DNA of 32,000 nt from Candidatus Thorarchaeota archaeon (GTDB lineage: Archaea > Asgardarchaeota > Thorarchaeia > Thorarchaeales > Thorarchaeaceae), in the NCBI GenBank assembly GCA_003345555.1, contig PRDJ01000036.1, positions 60,001 to 92,000 of the forward strand, read 5' to 3'. The position numbers and the translations under genes are program-made. Below are positions 2,096 to 20,636 of the stretch, in pieces; position 1 is the first letter of the stretch, and each line of letters begins with the position of its first letter. The notes beneath the pieces were generated by a model that made no database searches, had not been told where the DNA came from, and saw only the letters and a program-made list of their open reading frames with translations.

Positions 2096-3856
2096 CTACC
2101 TAGACTTTGTCCTGAAGTACAGCATTGCTATAATTAGCGACGACAGCAGGCCTAGAGCTAGCAATAAGCCCCAAAGATAACCAGGGCTCTCCTCCTGTAA
2201 CATAGACGTGACGACGACTGTCATCCATGGAGTTGTATGGACATTCTTCATGGAAGAATTATCGACCGCGATAACCCTGTAGACGACAATAGATCCTACA
2301 GCATATTCACCCAGTGAGGCCGAGTACAAATCTCTCCCTTGAGACTGCATCGTTGCGTTCACTGTATGGTTTGTGTCGAGTCCCCATTCGACTCTTATGC
2401 TGCTTATGTTATTGATGTCCCAGCAGTAGACTTGGACGGTCAAGTTGTTGGCGTAGCCTGTGGTGAATGACTGGATGACTGCGAAGCCACTAACCGTCGG
2501 GATATGCGCGTCGGCGGTCACGTTAACGGTCGTGACTGTTACAGCACTCTGGTTGAAGAAATCAGTCAACGTCATGTTGTAAACATGAATACCTACTGAG
2601 AGTCGATCTACGTTAACACTCAGGTTCTCGCCTCGCCACGTACCGTTCATTAGCACAGCACCGTCGCGAGTGAGGTTGTACGACCGCGGGTTGCTCTCAT
2701 CTGCACTCCAGTTCAGATAGTTGCCCTTGTAGCCTTCTTCATAACCAAGATAGGCCTTTCCTGTTACAACGGGAGCCCGAATGTCTTTGTAGATTGTGAC
2801 ATTCAATGAGTCAGTGTTGTTGCGTCCGTACTTATCAAAAAGCAGTATTGTGAATGTGTAGTTACCCAAGAAGATCGAATCCAAGCTTGTTGTGACGTCG
2901 TTACCTTCAGGATCGATGAAAGTCCATGAAGCCATAGTGATGTTTGTGGGGCTATGAAAAGCAGAGACATTACCGTAGCTACTGTTGGTATAGAGTGTTG
3001 TCACTCTGACTGTGTAGTTCTTGGGATTGCTGTCATACACATGCCAGACTATCTTGTGTCCCCTTGAGCCAAACTCGAAAGTGAGATCATCGGGCTGGGT
3101 AACGGTCGGAGGAGTCACGTCCAGATAGACAGTGACGTTCACCGAGCTGGTGGCATTGTGTTTGAGAGTGTCGTTGACAAACAGGGTATAGACATACCAG
3201 TGAGTTGCATTCAAGCCGTCCACGTTTATTGATATGTTCGCACCATAGAACTGTCCAGACTTTACAACCGTACGATTACTGGTGGTTTCGTTAGACGTTC
3301 TGGTTACATTGTAGAAATCGGGGTTGCTCTCCGTGATATTCCATGTCACAGTATGTCCGAAGCTACCCTCTTCGTAGCTGAAGTTGGCAGGGGCACTTAT
3401 GATGGGCGATGTTGTATCGGCAATCAGTGTTACAAGAACCTCATCCGACACGGACTCATTGCTGGTGTTGAACACCTTGCAGACAAAGACGAATAGTGCG
3501 GGCAAAGTACTCACTAGCTTCTCAGTGTAGAGGTGGTTCAGAAGCACTTCAATGGCTCCACCTGACCAGGAGCCCGATTTGTGAATCGTACCGTTTCTCG
3601 TTACAGTGTAGTTCTTTGGCGATGGGTCCGTAGAATTCCACACGATTTTCTTGTTTACTGTACCATTCTCGTAAGTCATATCAGAAGGACTGCTGATGCT
3701 GGGAGCCGCTGGAGCGAATTGACCCTCTGGCTTCAGATTGCTAACTAGAGAACTGAAGGACGATGAGACACAGGGTGACAGAACCAACCAAAACACTGTC
3801 ATGACCATGATGAATCTGCTGTGATGGCTCGAAAGCATTGGTGCACCATCCGCCAT
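2096..3856 (-). CDS. Membrane-anchored cell-surface glycoprotein with about five Ig-like beta-sandwich repeats
   Basis: N-terminal hydrophobic signal segment. Four ~95-110 aa repeats of consensus P.i..p.d.tyE.G..g..i.W...dsnP..Y.vtr.g, plus a fifth divergent domain. C-terminal TM helix (YLWGLLLALGLLSSLIIAMLYF) with a basic tail RTKSR. More than 30 N-x-S/T sequons by manual count. Confidence 0.85.
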   Translation of the reverse strand: MADGAPMLSSHHSRFIMVMTVFWLVLSPCVSSSFSSLVSNLKPEGQFAPAAPSISSPSDMTYENGTVNKKIVWNSTDPSPKNYTVTRNGTIHKSGSWSGGAIEVLLNHLYTEKLVSTLPALFVFVCKVFNTSNESVSDEVLVTLIADTTSPIISAPANFSYEEGSFGHTVTWNITESNPDFYNVTRTSNETTSNRTVVKSGQFYGANISINVDGLNATHWYVYTLFVNDTLKHNATSSVNVTVYLDVTPPTVTQPDDLTFEFGSRGHKIVWHVYDSNPKNYTVRVTTLYTNSSYGNVSAFHSPTNITMASWTFIDPEGNDVTTSLDSIFLGNYTFTILLFDKYGRNNTDSLNVTIYKDIRAPVVTGKAYLGYEEGYKGNYLNWSADESNPRSYNLTRDGAVLMNGTWRGENLSVNVDRLSVGIHVYNMTLTDFFNQSAVTVTTVNVTADAHIPTVSGFAVIQSFTTGYANNLTVQVYCWDINNISSIRVEWGLDTNHTVNATMQSQGRDLYSASLGEYAVGSIVVYRVIAVDNSSMKNVHTTPWMTVVVTSMLQEESPGYLWGLLLALGLLSSLIIAMLYFRTKSR

Positions 3857-3898
3857 TGGTCTTGATTGCGGCTAGCGCCCGCTCGAACAGGGGGCCCG

Positions 3899-3964
3899 TT
3901 TTATACTCTTCGGTGGCCGCGTCTCTTCTCTCAGAGAAAGGTCTGTATGGTGAATACTATTAAG
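3899..3964. promoter_or_regulatory. Divergent promoter region with two candidate TATA boxes
   Basis: TTTTATAC at 3899-3906 (TATAAAA on -, about 45 nt before start 3856) and TATTAAG at 3958-3964 (+). AAGGAG RBS at 4011-4016 precedes the gene at 4022. Confidence 0.4.
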
Positions 3965-4021
3965 ACCCTGCGTTGCTACTGACACTGGGACCTATCGGAC
4001 TCATACTGTCAAGGAGAATCG

Positions 4022-4936
4022 TTGATGCCCAAGGCCATCTATGCAATATGGTGGGACCCCAACCTCGGTCCTTTTCTCGGCCGGTCATACCCAGAGAATG
4101 ATCCGCTGACGTCCGAAGAAGCTGTAGTCATCTTCATGGGGCATGGACTGCAACAAGAAGCGAAGGTCGGCTACACAAAGTTGGCAAAGGGGTTGGTGGT
4201 ATCTTATCTTGACAGCCCAAACTGTATCGCGGTACTACTGGATGAGAACGATGATCCCTCAGTTGTCGAAAGGAATCTGCTTAGACTCGTCGGCCGTATC
4301 AATTTCAACAGCAGCAAATGGGATGCGGAGATAACGCGTGCCTTTCTTCTGTTGCAGGAACTCATCGCAGAGACATCTGGCCAAGAGCTGCTTTCCAATC
4401 CCCACGTTACCAGACTTGTCGAAGACATGGCTACGGGTAGAGTGTCAGCCCTGGTTCCTAGGCACGTGCTAAGGGCAACTGCAAAATACCCAAAGGCTTC
4501 GGACTACTTGGGACCCGATGAGGAAGAGGTCTCAAGACTGCTTAAGGATCTAGAACGTGCAGGCCACTTGGTTCCGAAGACATATGGAAGAAGAGTTGAA
4601 TGCAGACAGTGTGGAGGCACCGAAGTCACTCTCGAACTCGCGTGCCCTTCGTGTGGGAGTAATGACATCTACAAAGTCTATCTGGTGTTCTGCCCCAAGT
4701 GCGGTAATAGGACTCAGACAGTACTCGTAGATGACTTGACCGAGGTACGGTGCCAACAATGCAAGCAGCCTGCAAAGGTGTCAGAACTGTCTGTCATAGA
4801 CGTGGAGCTGCTCTGCAAAGGGTGTGGGCAGGCGACAAACGATCCCAAAATTGTACTGTCTTGTGCGAATTGTGGAAAGCACATGACAAACACTGATCTT
4901 TTAGGCGGGACAGGGTTGGCATACTATCCGGCGTAG
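4022..4936 (+). CDS. uDENN/longin-like N-terminal domain + winged-helix-like segment + triple Zn-ribbon (TackOD1-like) protein
   Basis: N-terminus AIYAIWWDPNLGPFLGRSYPE fits the uDENN-type longin start (hydrophobic strand, D/H-P-x-x-G-P, Y/V-P). The middle has a helix plus EEEVSRLLKDLERAGHLV. The C-terminus has six CxxC pairs (CRQC, CPSC, CPKC, CQQC, CKGC, CANC) in the arrangement recalled for thaumarchaeal output domain 1. Confidence 0.7.
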   Translation: MMPKAIYAIWWDPNLGPFLGRSYPENDPLTSEEAVVIFMGHGLQQEAKVGYTKLAKGLVVSYLDSPNCIAVLLDENDDPSVVERNLLRLVGRINFNSSKWDAEITRAFLLLQELIAETSGQELLSNPHVTRLVEDMATGRVSALVPRHVLRATAKYPKASDYLGPDEEEVSRLLKDLERAGHLVPKTYGRRVECRQCGGTEVTLELACPSCGSNDIYKVYLVFCPKCGNRTQTVLVDDLTEVRCQQCKQPAKVSELSVIDVELLCKGCGQATNDPKIVLSCANCGKHMTNTDLLGGTGLAYYPA

Positions 4937-4973
4937 CTCAAGAGGTCAAAGCGTCAATAGATTGCCAGGCCAT

Positions 4974-6584
4974 TCATGACCTCTTTCGCTCAGTCCCCTT
5001 TTGGGGTTTTGACTTGATGGCTTTCTTCAGAGCATCACGCACGTTCGCAAGTATCTTCTCCGCCTGCGATACGCTGAGACCTTTCGCCTTTGATGACAAC
5101 CGCTGAGGTGTCTCGCCTGCGAGTTGCTGTGCCGACTCGTACCCCGCCTCTCGAAGTCTCTCCTCCATTCTTGCACCTATTCCGGGAATCTTGCGTAGTG
5201 GAAGTACCTTCTCCATATCCGGGCCAATTATGTCGTGCATGTCCTTATCGCTGAGCTCTTGCATTCCCATGATGTCAAGCTGGCTCTTTATTGACTCGAA
5301 TTCCCCTGACCCAACGTACTGTTCGACTGTCTGCTTCACAAGGCGTTCGTCGAAATCGAGACTCAACTTCTCTATTTCTATCTCCTTTCCGAGAATCTCT
5401 GGGATGGGTGCAGACCTGTACAGAGCAAGCATTGCAAGAAGAATCGCGATCTGCGTTCCGAGAACTCGCAGATCGGCAGGGGGATACCAGTTGATTACAA
5501 AGGAGACCCGAAGCGATACGGCCCAGAAGAGGGCTACATACCCAGCGAAGAAGATCCATACTGCAGCTGTTCTGCGGCTCTTGGTCCTCGGAGAACCGAT
5601 TTCGGGCCATATCAGTAGCAAGATGAGGCCCAGAAAGAAACCTTCGATGAACCTCTCGGAGACCAGCAAAGCCGCAGCATACAATTGTATGGCCTCCACA
5701 GCAATCGGACTCAGTATTGTCAGTAGACCAAACAGGAGTACTCCGGTAGTGAAGGCGCCCTTTCTCCCTCTCCGGTCAGCGATTGTTCCAGCAACAACAA
5801 TCCCTACAATCATCATAATGGGCTCATAGAGCGAAAGACCCGAGTACTGGCCCAACGATTCGTACGTGCTAAACCCGGCATCTTGGAGCACCTTGATTAT
5901 TCCTAGCTGTGTCCCAAAGTACCACAGGATGTGTCCGGCCATGAGGATTGTGACAGGGATAAAGTACGACAATGCGTTCCCTTGGACGGCAAAGCGTTTG
6001 TACTCCATTCTCCAAGGTTTGAATGCGAGACCGAGTAGTACCGCGCCAACTGCCAGAATCTCCATCACTGGGATTCCTGATGCATCCAGGTTTATTCCAT
6101 ATGAGCCAAGAGCTGAGTAGATAGCAAACAGAACCAGTGAGAAGGTCATGAAAGCCGCGATGACCCTTCCCCGATACTTGGCTACCACGGCCTTGCCGAG
6201 TTGCACAACCCAGCTGAGCAGCATAACCGCCATACCGCTGAAGACGGATACTGTGAACAGCATCTCAAGCCCGGGGGAGGATGTGCTTGGAGTTCCTGTT
6301 TGAACGAGATACATGCCAACAAACAGGGGAACAATCGCGGCAAACGTCGTAATGACATAGCCTCGTCCGATATAATCGACAATGAATCCGGCCACAAGCA
6401 AGGTCAATACTGTAGAAAGGAGACCTATCCCCAAGAACTGTAGATTCTGCCCGCCAAATGCCGGAAAGAGGGCTTGGTTGCTCAATTGAGTAATTGCATA
6501 CATGAAATAGGCCATGGTTGGAGATACTAGCGCGAAGTATGCGGCCTTCCTGAAGGGAAACTCCCTGTACTCAAGCATATCCAA
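4974..6584 (-). CDS. MFS-like multipass transporter fused to a C-terminal helix-hairpin-helix domain
   Basis: About 12 hydrophobic segments. MFS motif A appears in both halves (GFIVDYIGRG; GTIADRRGRK). The soluble tail has LRKIPGIGARMEERLREAGYESAQQLA...KGLSVSQAEKILANV, a RadA-N/HHH_5-type tandem HhH. Start is TTG 6584 or ATG 6578. Confidence 0.8.
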   Translation of the reverse strand: MDMLEYREFPFRKAAYFALVSPTMAYFMYAITQLSNQALFPAFGGQNLQFLGIGLLSTVLTLLVAGFIVDYIGRGYVITTFAAIVPLFVGMYLVQTGTPSTSSPGLEMLFTVSVFSGMAVMLLSWVVQLGKAVVAKYRGRVIAAFMTFSLVLFAIYSALGSYGINLDASGIPVMEILAVGAVLLGLAFKPWRMEYKRFAVQGNALSYFIPVTILMAGHILWYFGTQLGIIKVLQDAGFSTYESLGQYSGLSLYEPIMMIVGIVVAGTIADRRGRKGAFTTGVLLFGLLTILSPIAVEAIQLYAAALLVSERFIEGFFLGLILLLIWPEIGSPRTKSRRTAAVWIFFAGYVALFWAVSLRVSFVINWYPPADLRVLGTQIAILLAMLALYRSAPIPEILGKEIEIEKLSLDFDERLVKQTVEQYVGSGEFESIKSQLDIMGMQELSDKDMHDIIGPDMEKVLPLRKIPGIGARMEERLREAGYESAQQLAGETPQRLSSKAKGLSVSQAEKILANVRDALKKAIKSKPQKGTERKRS

Positions 6585-6737: not shown

Positions 6738-7631
6738 ATGACAGGACCGTTGAAAGTGCAGGAGTTCATGGTTCTGACGGTAGGAGGAATACCCCTCTTC
6801 CATTATTCACCCAATGATTCGAGAAAACTCGATACTCTGCTGTCCGGATTCCTTAGTGCCGTCTCAAGCTTCGCGGCCGAGTTTGGAGAGCGTTCAATCC
6901 AGAGCCTATCCTTTGAAGGCTCGGAGATTCTCTATCAGACAGAAGCAGATGTTCTGTTCGTATTCGTAGTTGGATCTGGTGCAGAGAAGCGCGTCTTGAG
7001 GGCTGTGCTCAGAGACCTTAGTCGCAAGTTCCTCAGTAGCTACCAAGAGGAAATCAAGGCAGACGTTCTCATCGAGGATGCATTCAAGGGCTTTGCCGAC
7101 GAGGTCAAGAGATCCTTCTCGTTCTACGAAGGCGTTCTTGCAGTGGCAGCAAGTCTTAGCTCGTTTGTTGTTCCAAAGATAAACCAGGCAACATTCGATG
7201 CGGCTGTGAGCTTGATGGGGCTTTTGGATGAGCTGCATCGTGATTTTGGTATTGGTGGCAGCAGGATTGTGGATGCAATTGATGGAAAGGCCTCCATCTA
7301 CGATGTAAGTCGAATAACCGGAATTGAGATTGATCAAGTAACAGAGGTTGTCGAGTATCTCGTCATATGGGGTGTAGTCAGGGTGTTTAAGATGTGTCCA
7401 GCAATTCAGGCAAGCGACGCCAGGTTCGACATCTACCTCGATATCGTTGGTCTTCCCAAACGAGACAATCAGATTCTAATTCGAGCAAGACCTTTCTGTA
7501 AAGGCGAGAAGTCACTGGTTGAAATAAGCGAGAAAATAGGAGTCACAGCTGAAAAGCTACACGAGATACTAGGTAAGCTTGGCAATGCCGTAAGCTGGAA
7601 CTACATTGAAGTTACAAGCCTGTCACACTGA
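6738..7631 (+). CDS. Longin domain + two winged-helix domains (NPRL2/NPR2-like C-terminal half)
   Basis: The N-terminal ~115 aa show the Asgard-type longin pattern (FMVLTVGGIPLFHY...LLSGFLSAVSSFAAEF...IQSLSFEGSEILY...LFVFVV...LRDLSRKFL). wHTH1: IVDAIDGKASIYDVSRITGIEIDQVTEVVEYLVIWGVV. wHTH2: ARPFCKGEKSLVEISEKIGVTAEKLHEIL. Confidence 0.8.
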   Translation: MTGPLKVQEFMVLTVGGIPLFHYSPNDSRKLDTLLSGFLSAVSSFAAEFGERSIQSLSFEGSEILYQTEADVLFVFVVGSGAEKRVLRAVLRDLSRKFLSSYQEEIKADVLIEDAFKGFADEVKRSFSFYEGVLAVAASLSSFVVPKINQATFDAAVSLMGLLDELHRDFGIGGSRIVDAIDGKASIYDVSRITGIEIDQVTEVVEYLVIWGVVRVFKMCPAIQASDARFDIYLDIVGLPKRDNQILIRARPFCKGEKSLVEISEKIGVTAEKLHEILGKLGNAVSWNYIEVTSLSH

Positions 7632-7737: not shown

Positions 7738-9033
7738 CTGGTCAAAGAAGTCCTCATCCTACGTGAAGGCGGAATTCCACTCTTTCATTACAGTGTTGGC
7801 GGCACAAAGAAGCTAGACGAACTCGTTGCAGCCTTCTTATCGGTCATGGGGTCTCTTGCAGAACGAGTAAGTGAACAGCAAATCAAAGTCGTATCGTTCG
7901 CCTCGAACAAGTTCGTCTGGCAACAAAAAGGCGACCTTCTATTCATAGCCCTGGTGTCGCAGGAAGACAGTGTAGAGATATACCGTGTGTTACTCCGGGA
8001 CCTTGCAGATCAGTTCGTAAGCACGTTCTACTCGGAACTGAAAAGTGGAACGAGTCAGTTCACTGTATTCAAAAGGTTCGCAGACACCGTTGAAGCTACA
8101 CTTCAAAGGTTCGATGGTATTCCGGGTCTGGCCCGACGCTACAAGATAGGCCTCCTGCCTGCTGACGATCTGAAGCGGCTAAGGATTGTCATGGCGCAAG
8201 CGGAGAGGCGTCCTGGCGTGATGAGAGGAGCAGTAATCACGCGTGACGGCTTTGTGCTTGCCTCCAACCTTAGGTCATACGAGATGGAAGCCTTGCTGGA
8301 TCTTCTGGATAGTCTGAGTTCCGCTCCTAAGTTAGCTGAAAGGAGCCTGACTCTTTCCCATACGAGCTTGGACCCGTTGACGCGCTTTTTCGTCACTAGG
8401 GCGGAGAATAACGTGTATTGTATATTCATCGTGAGTGCAGAGAAACCTGACAGCCAGCTCTTGAAGGGAGTTGAGCCTGTGCTCGCCGCTGTCGCTTCTC
8501 TTGACCAAACAAGCCTGAAAAGAGTTCTCCCCACATATCTAGCCGAGTCGACCGGATTCTACGAATATGATTTGGTCATACCGTTGATCCCTGTTGCAGA
8601 GGCGCTAGACAGCTCTAGCAGGTTTCTCGGCGGAATCGAGGACACCCTTCGAGCTAATGCTGTTACCGTCCTCAATATTGTAGACCAGAGGAACACAATC
8701 ACTGACATAGAAAGGAAGACGGGGTTTACGGCTGAGGAAACAACTGAAGTACTAGCCCATCTCGTCTCGAATGGCATTGTCAAAATAGCAAAGCTCTATC
8801 CCGTCATGGCTGAAAGGGACAGACGATTTGCGGCATTTCTTGAAGTCGCAGGAATGAATAATAGGGACTATCGCATAGTCGATGCCATCTGGCAGTATTG
8901 TACAGGAGCGTATTCGCTCAAGGAAGTGTCTGACGAAACAGAAATCCCCGCAGCTCGAATACTTGAGGTGCTCAAGTCGTTAGGCAAATACGTCAGATAT
9001 GAGACAGAAAGGGTGATGCAACACGTGCGCTGA
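7738..9033 (+). CDS. Longin + roadblock/LC7 + two winged-helix domain protein (paralog of 6738..7631), probable CTG start
   Basis: The frame is open upstream of the tracked ATG 7846 and encodes VKEVLILREGGIPLFHYSVGGTKKLDELVAAFLSV, clearly homologous to the paralog N-terminus. No in-frame ATG/GTG/TTG lies between the stops at 7687-7692 and 7846. Central roadblock motif: RPGVMRGAVITRDGFVLASN. C-terminal wHTH pair: VLNIVDQRNTITDIERKTG...LAHLVSNGIV and YCTGAYSLKEVSDETEI. Confidence 0.8.
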   Translation: MVKEVLILREGGIPLFHYSVGGTKKLDELVAAFLSVMGSLAERVSEQQIKVVSFASNKFVWQQKGDLLFIALVSQEDSVEIYRVLLRDLADQFVSTFYSELKSGTSQFTVFKRFADTVEATLQRFDGIPGLARRYKIGLLPADDLKRLRIVMAQAERRPGVMRGAVITRDGFVLASNLRSYEMEALLDLLDSLSSAPKLAERSLTLSHTSLDPLTRFFVTRAENNVYCIFIVSAEKPDSQLLKGVEPVLAAVASLDQTSLKRVLPTYLAESTGFYEYDLVIPLIPVAEALDSSSRFLGGIEDTLRANAVTVLNIVDQRNTITDIERKTGFTAEETTEVLAHLVSNGIVKIAKLYPVMAERDRRFAAFLEVAGMNNRDYRIVDAIWQYCTGAYSLKEVSDETEIPAARILEVLKSLGKYVRYETERVMQHVR

Positions 9034-9037
9034 CATA

Positions 9038-9787
9038 ACGTCGAAGATAGTGTGTATCCATAGCTTCAGGGGTGGAACTGGGAAGTCCAATATAGCAGCC
9101 AATCTTGCTGCAGTCGCTGCCCTCGATGGAAAGAGAGTTGCTGTCATAGACACCGATGTGGCGTCACCGGGAATACATGTAATCTTTGGACTAGGCAGGC
9201 AAAAACTGAAACACACACTTAATGACTACCTACGCGGAGAGTGTGATATCAAAGACGCCTGTATGGATATGACGAGCGAACTTGGTATCAGGCGAGGACA
9301 ACTGTTCTTGATTCCCAGTTCGATGAGCGCCACCGACATTACGCGTATTCTAAGAGAAGGTTTTGAGGTCAGCGATCTCAAGAACGGATTCACTGAAGTG
9401 ATCAAGGCAAAGAACCTCGATTACCTCATTATTGATACGCATCCGGGTCTTGACCGCGAGACTCTGCTGTCGATGGCCACGACAGACTTCCTGTTCGTGG
9501 TAGCCAGAATCGATGAGCAGGACCTACTCGGCACGGCAGCAACATTGAGCGTCGCCAGTAAATTGCAGGTGCCCGATACTCGAATTATCATCAACAAGAA
9601 GCCGAGCATCTACGAAGACAAGGCGATAATCGAGGAAGTTGAGCGGAAGTTCAAGACGAAGGTCGTTACAATCATCCCGATGCTGCAGATTCTCACCGAG
9701 GTTGGTAGTAGGTACATCGTCTGTTTGAAACATCCAGAGAGTGAATTCACTCAGCGGATGCAGGAGATCTACTCAGTCATCAAATAG
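9038..9787 (+). CDS. MinD/ParA-family (SIMIBI) ATPase
   Basis: Deviant Walker A SFRGGTGKS, VIDTDVASPGIH, and IIDTHPG Walker B/switch II. The track start is GTG 9050; in-frame ACG 9038 would restore the recalled family N-terminus MSKIV(S/C)IHSFRGGTGKSN. Confidence 0.92.
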   Translation, partial: TSKIVCIHSFRGGTGKSNIAANLAAVAALDGKRVAVIDTDVASPGIHVIFGLGRQKLKHTLNDYLRGECDIKDACMDMTSELGIRRGQLFLIPSSMSATDITRILREGFEVSDLKNGFTEVIKAKNLDYLIIDTHPGLDRETLLSMATTDFLFVVARIDEQDLLGTAATLSVASKLQVPDTRIIINKKPSIYEDKAIIEEVERKFKTKVVTIIPMLQILTEVGSRYIVCLKHPESEFTQRMQEIYSVIK

Positions 9788-19403: not shown

Positions 19404-20636
19404 GTGACTCTCTTGCCGGGTTACGTCGAGGTCCGTGATAAGGGCATTCTAAGAAAGAAGATACCGACAAGCAACAGATCATTTGAAAACGTGTGCTCCG
19501 ATCTTGAGCGCTTCTTCAAGGACGCAGGAAAGAAGCTGCCGCCCGGCGTTGTAAGAGAAGCTCTACAGAGAATAGGTGTTCCTCAGGTTAAGATGATAAT
19601 CTCACAGGCGGAGCCACTAGAAGAATCACAAGCAAAGGTTGTCAAGGAGATTTCAGCCTCGGTTGAGGCTAGGAAGAAATCAAAGAGAAAGCCGAAGGTA
19701 GCCAAGAGTACAAGTAAGACAGAGGAAGTTCCTGAAGCGGCCAAGAAAGAACCAGCAGGTGACATATCTGGCATTGAGTATCACGACGTTGAAGAAGCTT
19801 TGAGCGTAGTGGAATCCCTGAGTGATTCGTTTCTCTCATCCAAGTCCAAGGATGCATCCCGTGCAACTCCTGACAAGGGTAAAATCAGTATCGAAGTCGA
19901 GGGAACCGAAGAGATAGTCGGTGCTCCCCGCTTGCGGGCGGCCATGCCAGAACAAGTGCCGCATGCGATCAAGGCCACTGCTGAACAGTTTCCGCCCTCA
20001 CCGACGGAGTCCGGCAGACCCAAGGAGGCGGCTCAGTCTCCCACACGCATACCCAAGACGCAGGTGATTGCAAAGGCCCTGATTCTGGGGGAAGAAGGCG
20101 TAGGCAAGTCATCATTGATAGCAAAGGGAGGCCTCAAGCCGCTCGAGTCAAGCCCTGAGGCAGAGAAGAGACCGTATGTCACGGAGAAAGTGATTGAGGT
20201 TGACAACTACAGAGTCAGGCTGCAGGCATGGCTATTTGACGCAGCTTCGGCCTCAAGAGTGACAAGAAAGGCGTTCTATGAAGATACTGGTCTCGTCATC
20301 ATTGTGTATAGCACATCAGACCGTTGGTCATTCGAGAGCATTGATTTCTGGCTCAAGGAGAGCATATCGGCCTCTGGGATACGACCTCCTGTGGTTATCG
20401 TCGGGAACAAGACCGACGTTCGAGCCAACTCACCCCTCGTGGACAGGGAGCCTCCGGTATCACCAGAAGAGGGATTGAAGTTGGCACATGAAATAGCCTC
20501 GAAGCTCGCATCGGGGCAGAAGACTCATCCAGTAGCCTTCATTGAGACCTCGTGCCTCACTGGCCAAGGTGTTGAGGACCTGTTTAGGATGGCTGCAGAG
20601 CTTTTCGTCAAGTCAATCAATCGACCGAAAGCATAG
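19404..20636 (+). CDS. Rab/Ras-like small GTPase domain with degenerate switch motifs and ~215-aa N-terminal extension
   Basis: G1 GEEGVGKS, G4 VIVGNKTD and G5 FIETSCLTG are present. G3 reads AWLFDAAS instead of WDTAG. Rab-like spacing includes IIVYSTSDRWSFESIDFWLKE. The N-terminal half is mostly K/E/S/P/A-rich. Confidence 0.85.
   Translation: MTLLPGYVEVRDKGILRKKIPTSNRSFENVCSDLERFFKDAGKKLPPGVVREALQRIGVPQVKMIISQAEPLEESQAKVVKEISASVEARKKSKRKPKVAKSTSKTEEVPEAAKKEPAGDISGIEYHDVEEALSVVESLSDSFLSSKSKDASRATPDKGKISIEVEGTEEIVGAPRLRAAMPEQVPHAIKATAEQFPPSPTESGRPKEAAQSPTRIPKTQVIAKALILGEEGVGKSSLIAKGGLKPLESSPEAEKRPYVTEKVIEVDNYRVRLQAWLFDAASASRVTRKAFYEDTGLVIIVYSTSDRWSFESIDFWLKESISASGIRPPVVIVGNKTDVRANSPLVDREPPVSPEEGLKLAHEIASKLASGQKTHPVAFIETSCLTGQGVEDLFRMAAELFVKSINRPKA

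Follow-up and report, generated by a model that had tools for sequence, protein, structure and literature searches.

The window analysed here, a stretch of 32,000 nucleotides from a Candidatus Thorarchaeota archaeon (GenBank assembly GCA_003345555.1, contig PRDJ01000036.1, positions 60,001 to 92,000), raises the question of what a longin domain is doing at the front of a protein whose C-terminal half is TackOD1, a domain first described in archaeal response regulators. An initial annotation, made from the sequence alone, had read the open reading frame (ORF) at 4022-4936 on the forward strand as a uDENN-type longin fused to a TackOD1-like output domain, through which longin and GTPase signalling would reach a prokaryotic output. 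We followed up this proposal with profile searches, structure prediction and a comparison of gene neighbourhoods. The account best supported by these analyses, in which we have about even confidence, is that of a zinc-stabilised homodimer whose free longins, of the GTPase-activating protein (GAP) type and resembling that of C9orf72, engage a small GTPase.

The ORF is real: it is present as called and has more than 140 full-length homologues (55-91% identity), which makes longin-TackOD1 a conserved gene. Nearly all of these homologues come from Thorarchaeota, and some carry the NCBI label "TackOD1 domain-containing metal-binding protein". Of 76 genomes sampled from its family in the Genome Taxonomy Database, 63 yielded a full-length copy, almost always one per genome, and the source assembly also has a single copy. 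Since all homologues open with MPKA and a GGAG lies 9 nt 5' of ATG 4025, the true start is most likely this ATG rather than TTG 4022, one codon upstream. The gene would then span 4025-4936 (+) and encode 303 amino acids (aa); residue numbers used below are those of the 304-codon frame counted from 4022. Fusions of a longin to TackOD1 also occur in three further Asgard families, namely f2, which belongs to the same order, f12 and f19.

The N-terminal domain (4025-4387, +; approximately residues 2-122) models as a longin. In the full-length AlphaFold2 (AF2) model, with a predicted local distance difference test score (pLDDT) of 86.5, DSSP assigned strands 5-12 and 16-23, helix 31-39, strands 49-54, 57-64 and 67-72, and helices 79-90 and 100-118, which gives the five-stranded antiparallel sheet and the beta-beta-alpha-beta-beta-beta-alpha-alpha order of the longin fold. 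An exhaustive structural comparison with VIA-align matched residues 1-120 to more than 25 solved longins at Z 8-10.5. The top match was a chain of GATOR1 (8fw5_B; Z 10.5, root-mean-square deviation 2.9, 118 residues aligned), followed by a chain of the SEA complex (8adl_S; Z 10.2) and by a Lokiarchaeal Roadblock-Longin protein (8yqg_B; Z 10.1). Several chains of AP-3, VAMP7, FNIP2/FLCN and DENND1A came next (Z 8.7-9.9), and several Roadblocks scored Z about 7-8. Judging from their chain lengths, the two top chains are probably NPRL2 and Npr2. The longin or uDENN fold expected of this domain was therefore recovered as a longin, with its best matches in GATOR1 and SEA. The Response_reg (receiver, REC) profile of Pfam had no match in the protein. 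Other searches gave little on the longin. PDB sequences searched by profile and by peptide gave chance matches only, and Foldseek against the PDB returned nothing at E ≤ 0.001 with either the full-length or the C-terminal model. A phmmer search of 1.8 billion representatives gave seven matches, made up of the protein's own family, a distant fusion (P0125) and a longin-winged-helix protein (P0126). The ESM Atlas feature search yielded weak leads (score 0.77), including one Asgard cluster with NPR2 in 19% of its members.

A conserved hairpin at the beta1-beta2 turn, W10-P24 (WWD-x3-GP...P; 4049-4093, +), is a candidate GTPase-facing pocket. Residues W10, W11, D12, L15, G16, P17, G20, R21 and P24 are invariant across 36 homologues of 55-91% identity, so that the N-terminal string which the initial annotation had likened to the start of NPRL2 is present and is not there by chance; the likeness lies in this motif. 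When the four fusion lineages were aligned (16-27% identity), D12, G16, P17 and P24 were the sole invariant residues of the longin, and such strict conservation of D, GP and P within a single hairpin points to a specific binding site. In the AF2 model G16-P17 open strand 2, the place described for the GP of GAP-type longins. A GP motif in this position, either opening strand 2 or in the loop ahead of it, is reported to be specific to FLCN, NPRL2, SMCR8 and C9orf72 and absent from adaptins, TRAPP and DENND proteins (PMC12290439, 2025). NPRL2, FLCN and SMCR8 have a catalytic arginine finger next to the GP, whereas C9orf72 has no such finger but has a WD, the essential W33-D34, just before G38-P39 (PMC12290439). 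A GP motif had already been noted in Heimdall longins in 2025.

The C-terminal half belongs to TackOD1 (Pfam PF18551; residues 151-294, 4472-4903, +). It matched positions 34-179 of the 188 in the profile with 65.3 bits (E 6.9e-18), the gathering threshold being 32, and distant fusion relatives reached 88-111 bits. The ESM Atlas structure search likewise returned matches to TackOD1 clusters. The Cys-rich part is thus the family that had been proposed and not an unrelated zinc ribbon. Its six CxxC pairs (194/197, 208/211, 224/227, 244/247, 265/268 and 281/284) are also borne out, with 12 of 12 cysteines invariant. The corresponding knuckles (C194-C284; 4601-4876, +) each sit at a beta-hairpin turn in the model, and the order of the pairs suggests that they make up three Cys4 zinc ribbons. 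The separate model of the C-terminal half (residues 141-304; pLDDT 91.3) shows two helices and a beta wing, then the CxxC-tipped beta-hairpins, then a last strand. The first of these parts, a winged-helix-like unit (4490-4642, +), comprises helices 157-163 and 167-179 and strands 183-191 and 201-207, so that only two helices precede the wing, against the three-helix bundle of a winged-helix DNA-binding domain. It resembles TFE-alpha at Z 5.3 and MarR/ArsR-type proteins at Z 4-4.6, both weak matches over only 42-50 residues, and HTH_Crp_2 of Pfam matched the protein below the cut-off (E 0.064). The segment LKDLERAGHLV, earlier taken to be part of a winged helix-turn-helix (wHTH), does lie within this helix-strand-strand unit, but its likeness to a winged helix is weak (Z 4-5.3 over about 45 residues). 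In the light of the model, "wHTH-like plus three zinc ribbons" remains a fair description of the domain, with a weak winged-helix call, and support for DNA binding by TackOD1 is weak at best. The unit is framed by a linker helix (127-137) and a strand (146-156; together 4400-4489, +), in which P146 and Y156 are invariant in the family, and by a C-terminal strand at 293-303 (4898-4930, +), modelled as strand 296-303 with T297, G298, L299 and A300 invariant.

The TackOD1 halves are predicted to pair. The complex prediction for a homodimer scored 0.73, against 0.00 for the best control. Among proteins of solved structure, 20 of 30 pairs of one chain attained this score, as did 1 of 23 single chains; these benchmark counts apply only roughly, because a custom alignment was used. 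The runs shared at least 85% of contacts, and the partner pLDDT was at least 79. In the predicted interface, which is confined to residues 128-303 so that the longins do not touch, strand 146-156 pairs with its twin and residue 277 faces 277, with the wing strands and C-terminal strand 293-303 also taking part; the latter packs back in the model on both the winged-helix unit and the interface. The contacts of lowest error were 150:150, 151:151 and 147:155. These predictions support TackOD1 as a two-fold dimerisation module, and such a module would make sense of its fusions to GGDEF, to an Mrr-type nuclease, to a receiver and to Lrp/AsnC.

To compare gene neighbourhoods, 16 additional TackOD1 loci were fetched. 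In families f3, f6 and f13, TackOD1 genes directly follow Rab-like genes (Pfam Ras, E 1e-45 to 1e-58), which either run into the TackOD1 start or end right beside it, and in f19 a longin-Arf GTPase gene lies upstream of a TackOD1-Lrp/AsnC fusion. The longin-TackOD1 gene of f19 itself stands beside Rab-like, Roadblock and two KaiC-like genes, and KaiC-like genes also flank the f2 fusion and a roadblock-like-TackOD1 gene of f6. Because these genomes contain 16-25 Ras-family matches each (16 in the source genome), a GTPase gene directly upstream would be expected for less than 1% of genes. The earlier proposal that a longin in the receiver's place ties GTPase-type signalling to TackOD1 gains support from these Rab-TackOD1 and longin-Arf/TackOD1 gene pairs.

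Individual loci illustrate the range of arrangements. At three of them (L030, 4456-6290, -; L031, 4437-6043, +; L038, 4204-6093, +) which represent three other Asgard families, the Rab-like gene overlaps the start of the TackOD1 gene or ends no more than 7 bp from it, a hint that the two are translationally coupled. The TackOD1 proteins encoded there have 366-423 aa; two of these three proteins, those of L030 and L038, have a coiled-coil N-terminus. At L040 (2340-3467, +) and L041 (4447-5565, -), TackOD1 is joined to a complete Lrp/AsnC regulator, with its HTH_AsnC-type and ligand-binding domains, and the gene follows that of a longin-Arf GTPase. Longer longin-TackOD1 proteins of about 470-510 aa, with a weak Mrr_cat-like region at the C-terminus (E 0.08), are encoded at L026 (5705-7141, +) and L027 (4568-6103, +); both adjoin two KaiC-like genes and a Rab-like GTPase gene, and L027 a Roadblock gene as well.

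Taken together, the Thorarchaeal protein could be a cytoplasmic signalling protein that dimerises symmetrically through its TackOD1 domains, each made up of a winged-helix-like unit and three Cys4 ribbons, with a free N-terminal longin on either chain. The longin, placed with those of NPRL2, FLCN, SMCR8 and C9orf72 by its fold and its WD-x3-GP hairpin, would most likely bind a Ras-superfamily GTPase whose gene lies at a different site in the genome. In doing so it would either assist GTP hydrolysis, as partner or co-factor, or read the nucleotide state. The state of the GTPase would then be passed to the TackOD1 dimer, whose output may be the binding of protein or of nucleic acid. In Thorarchaeales, the likely downstream target would be a divergently encoded surface glycoprotein, described below.

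Several observations weigh against this account. Differences of less than 1 in VIA-align Z were counted as ties, and GAP-type, uDENN, adaptor and SNARE longins all fell within 1 Z unit of one another; hence the fold alone shows a longin and not one of NPRL2 type. The uDENN of DENND1A, for instance, scored Z 9.1, level with adaptor and SNARE longins. Of the "uDENN-type longin" in the initial annotation, the longin stands on its fold, while the uDENN label is not provable, given the tied Z scores and the Pfam results: NPR2 (PF06218), C9orf72-like (PF15019) and Folliculin (PF11704), searched up to E 10, matched nothing in the protein, in 25 family members or in the six-frame translation of the genome, and uDENN (PF03456) matched neither the protein nor the 25 members, in which no longin family of Pfam was found either. 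Moreover, the alignment of the four lineages holds no invariant arginine, R21, R84 and R88 being invariant within the Thorarchaeal family only, and an autonomous GAP is therefore unlikely. With WD and GP present and a cross-lineage arginine absent, the longin is most like C9orf72, the arginine-less partner. As for the C-terminal half, the dimer is a prediction, and the zinc-ribbon array found no solved counterpart in structure searches, in which the best match (Z 5.3) fell on the winged-helix part. Finally, no GTPase gene was found within 5 kb of the TackOD1 genes of f12 (longin-TackOD1 and others) and f18, of the f2 fusion or of further TackOD1 genes of f2, and none adjoins the fusion in the source genome and family; in the source genome the closest Ras-family match is some 5.7 kb upstream.

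The surroundings of the gene bear on its possible target. Four Thorarchaeal loci were compared (the window, L001, L002 and L003), and they share a gene order: FrhB-like, NTPase_1, a 586-aa predicted surface protein (-), longin-TackOD1 (+), a membrane protein with a helix-hairpin-helix tail (-), two longin-winged-helix genes and MinD/ParA. The surface-protein gene (2096-3856, -) is divergent from longin-TackOD1, and its product has hydrophobic segments at both the N- and C-terminus, internal PKD/Ig-like repeats, dozens of N-x-S/T sites and weak PKD/Big_3 matches. It is adjacent and divergent in three of the four loci (the window, L001 and L003), and in L002 about 2.4 kb separate it from the fusion gene. 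It is adjacent again in another family of the order, and it is the sole neighbour kept beyond the fusion's own family. Between these two families the surface proteins share 38% identity, against 23-25% for the longin-TackOD1 proteins. Contigs from one wetland RNA library (at least 99% identity) cover 3044-3510, inside the surface-protein gene, although DNA carry-over is possible; none of the metatranscriptome contigs of that library covers the longin-TackOD1 gene, which is uninformative on its expression.

Between the two divergent genes lies a shared intergenic region of 168 bp (3857-4024). Blocks within this spacer, CCGCTCGAAC...GGTTTTATAC(C/T)CTTCGGT and CTGATAAGA/CTATTAAGA, are kept among loci whose proteins are about 60% identical, and a further element, GGGAC..CAAGAC, located after CTGATAAGA and before the ribosome-binding site, is also conserved across the Thorarchaeal loci. 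The blocks probably represent two divergent TATA promoters plus leader or operator elements.

Such an operator is central to the strongest of the rival explanations, which we nevertheless consider unlikely, that of a one-component transcription factor. Here the TackOD1 dimer would bind the 168-bp spacer through its winged-helix-like unit and basic wing, the longin serving only as a sensor or oligomerisation input. The winged-helix matches, the conserved intergenic blocks and a divergent gene pair maintained across two families would fit such a factor, as would a predicted two-fold dimer, which suits a palindromic site, and the recurrence of TackOD1 with Lrp/AsnC, with Mrr_cat and as REC-wHTH-TackOD1 (PMC5847659). 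Promoters can by themselves explain the conserved blocks, and the Lrp/AsnC fusions already own a dedicated DNA-binding domain. The matches to winged helices (Z 4-5.3) are, however, weak and short, and the candidate recognition helix starts acidic and has residues 173, 174 and 177 inside the predicted dimer interface, where they would be buried. In most homologues, furthermore, the C-terminal half is net acidic (-3 to -11).

The longin could also serve as a generic fold for scaffolding or dimerisation that plays no part in GTPase signalling, in which case the protein would have a structural or chaperone-like function dependent on zinc or redox state. Folds of the longin and roadblock kind often do no more than dimerise, as the title of entry 8yqg indicates, and automatic labels on the homologues (HypA/HybF, ribosomal protein S27E, rubrerythrin, FwdE) suggest such a factor. 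The HypA match in the protein (E 5.5e-5) covers one ribbon only, and its 23.6 bits are below the Pfam cut-off of 28.9. We regard this explanation as improbable: the predicted dimer leaves the longins outside its interface, the strict conservation of the D/GP/P hairpin speaks for a specific binding site, and the recurrent GTPase neighbourhoods of TackOD1 genes would be left unexplained.

More improbable still is a 'proto-GATOR' complex in which the protein would supply the GP-bearing longin, the other subunits being the products of two longin-winged-helix genes nearby (6738-7631 and 7846-9033) and a MinD/ParA ATPase (9050-9787). In its favour, the fusion gene and these three neighbours fall within a stretch of 6 kb, both in the window and in three further Thorarchaeal genomes, the neighbouring longins have no GP hairpin of their own, and eukaryotic GAP longins act as heterodimers (PMC12290439). 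Against it, the linkage is limited to one family, the fusions of f2, f12 and f19 having no such neighbours, a membrane-protein gene on the opposite strand intervenes, joined in other genomes by an mtd gene, and the longins are unrelated at the profile level.

A related idea in the initial annotation, that the NPRL2-like C-terminal halves reside on the genes 2-4 kb away, did not hold. The two longin-winged-helix proteins carry longins of their own with no profile relation to that of the fusion (hhalign probability 0.8%), and the pair is linked to the fusion gene within a single family, so a "split NPRL2" was rejected. Elsewhere in the source genome, on contigs C39 and C77, two paralogues of about 375 aa each do have the fusion's type of longin (L020, 1480-2598, -, with 626-1498, -; L021, 1501-2640, +), in which a degenerate D...G hairpin is followed by winged helices. 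One of them overlaps a longin-Arf-like GTPase gene, which suggests an operon and speaks for the GTPase link of the main account.

The intervening membrane-protein gene (4974-6584, -) encodes a 536-aa multi-pass protein with a C-terminal HHH_5 match (E 5e-8) and occupies the same position in all four loci. An mtd gene (PF01993) comes immediately after the fusion in L001 (11033-11896), L002 (11002-11844) and L003 (11361-12212). It is absent from the window locus, where the flanking genes are just 37 bp apart (4937-4973), and the whole 93%-complete source assembly returned no MTD match. Farther along the window, a 410-aa protein (19404-20636, +) has a Ras-family GTPase domain at residues 224-399, and the N-terminal extension of about 215 aa that precedes it matches no family. 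The segment 21798-29352 (+) encodes an ABC (ATP-binding cassette) ATPase, two tandem FtsX-type permeases of 941 aa and a second ABC ATPase whose C-terminus is weakly MraZ/AbrB-like (PF02381, just below the cut-off).

Returning to the dimer with C9orf72-like longins, a wider and rather speculative extension, doubtful in our view, would make TackOD1 the long-sought effector on which small GTPases of Asgard archaea act. Those of Rab or Arf type would do so either directly, in operon pairs, or through a fused C9orf72-like WD/GP longin, and the zinc-ribbon dimer would control gene expression or the assembly of a cell-surface glycoprotein. If true, it would constitute a prokaryotic pathway from GTPase to surface or transcription, assembled from components that eukaryotes would later employ at the lysosome. 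Asgard genomes contain dozens of Ras-superfamily GTPases and longin or roadblock proteins. To the search for their partners and outputs the family brings a compact conserved longin with the WD/GP hairpin that marks eukaryotic longin GAPs, a C-terminal module whose relatives share operons with Rab-like GTPases in other Asgard families, and a conserved candidate target gene, the surface glycoprotein. It also bears on whether longin-GTPase regulation predates eukaryotes. The value of the finding is tempered by the computational nature of all the evidence and by the prior publication of the fusion class.

Indeed, Liu et al. (bioRxiv 10.1101/2020.10.19.343400; Nature 2021) described Asgard NPRL2-like longins fused to domains related to two-component systems and named Thorarchaeota as rich in NPRL2-like proteins. 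The Thorarchaeal protein resembles those fusions, as far as they are described there, in joining an Asgard longin that is NPRL2-like by fold to a domain known from archaeal response regulators; the preprint text does not name TackOD1. While the class of longin-two-component fusions is already published, the cross-lineage motif, the predicted TackOD1 dimer and the linkage to a surface-protein gene are additions made here. TackOD1 itself was described as a predicted zinc-binding domain with five CxxC and one HxxC, about 11 cysteines in all, found alone, as REC-TackOD1 and as REC-wHTH-TackOD1, with its function unknown (Galperin et al., 2018; PMC5847659). The REC-TackOD1 regulators of Thaumarchaeota and other TACK archaea likewise carry this Pfam domain at the C-terminus, and its Cys-rich pattern is predicted to bind zinc. 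They differ in that a longin replaces the receiver in the Thorarchaeal protein and in that the latter has six CxxC, the HxxC presumably being a CxxC here. Cell-surface loci recur in both, since arCOG06883 (TackOD1) is tied to thaumarchaeal type IV pilus loci (PMC4858521) and the Thorarchaeal gene to a PKD surface protein.

The Rab-TackOD1 and longin-Arf/TackOD1 pairs (L030, L031, L038, L040 and L041) are also from Asgard genomes and have the same TackOD1 domain (E 1e-31 to 1e-38). Their TackOD1 proteins have coiled-coil, Lrp/AsnC or nuclease-like parts and share an operon with the GTPase, whereas the Thorarchaeal protein bears the longin itself and has no adjacent GTPase gene. Compared with the eukaryotic longins of C9orf72 (with SMCR8), NPRL2 (with NPRL3) and FLCN (with FNIP2), the Thorarchaeal longin differs in having no profile-level match and no conserved arginine finger, and the protein has neither DENN nor NPRL2-type C-terminal domains. 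It shares with them the longin fold and the GP at the start of strand 2, and with C9orf72 the exact WD-x3-GP spacing of W33-D34 and G38-P39 (PMC12290439).

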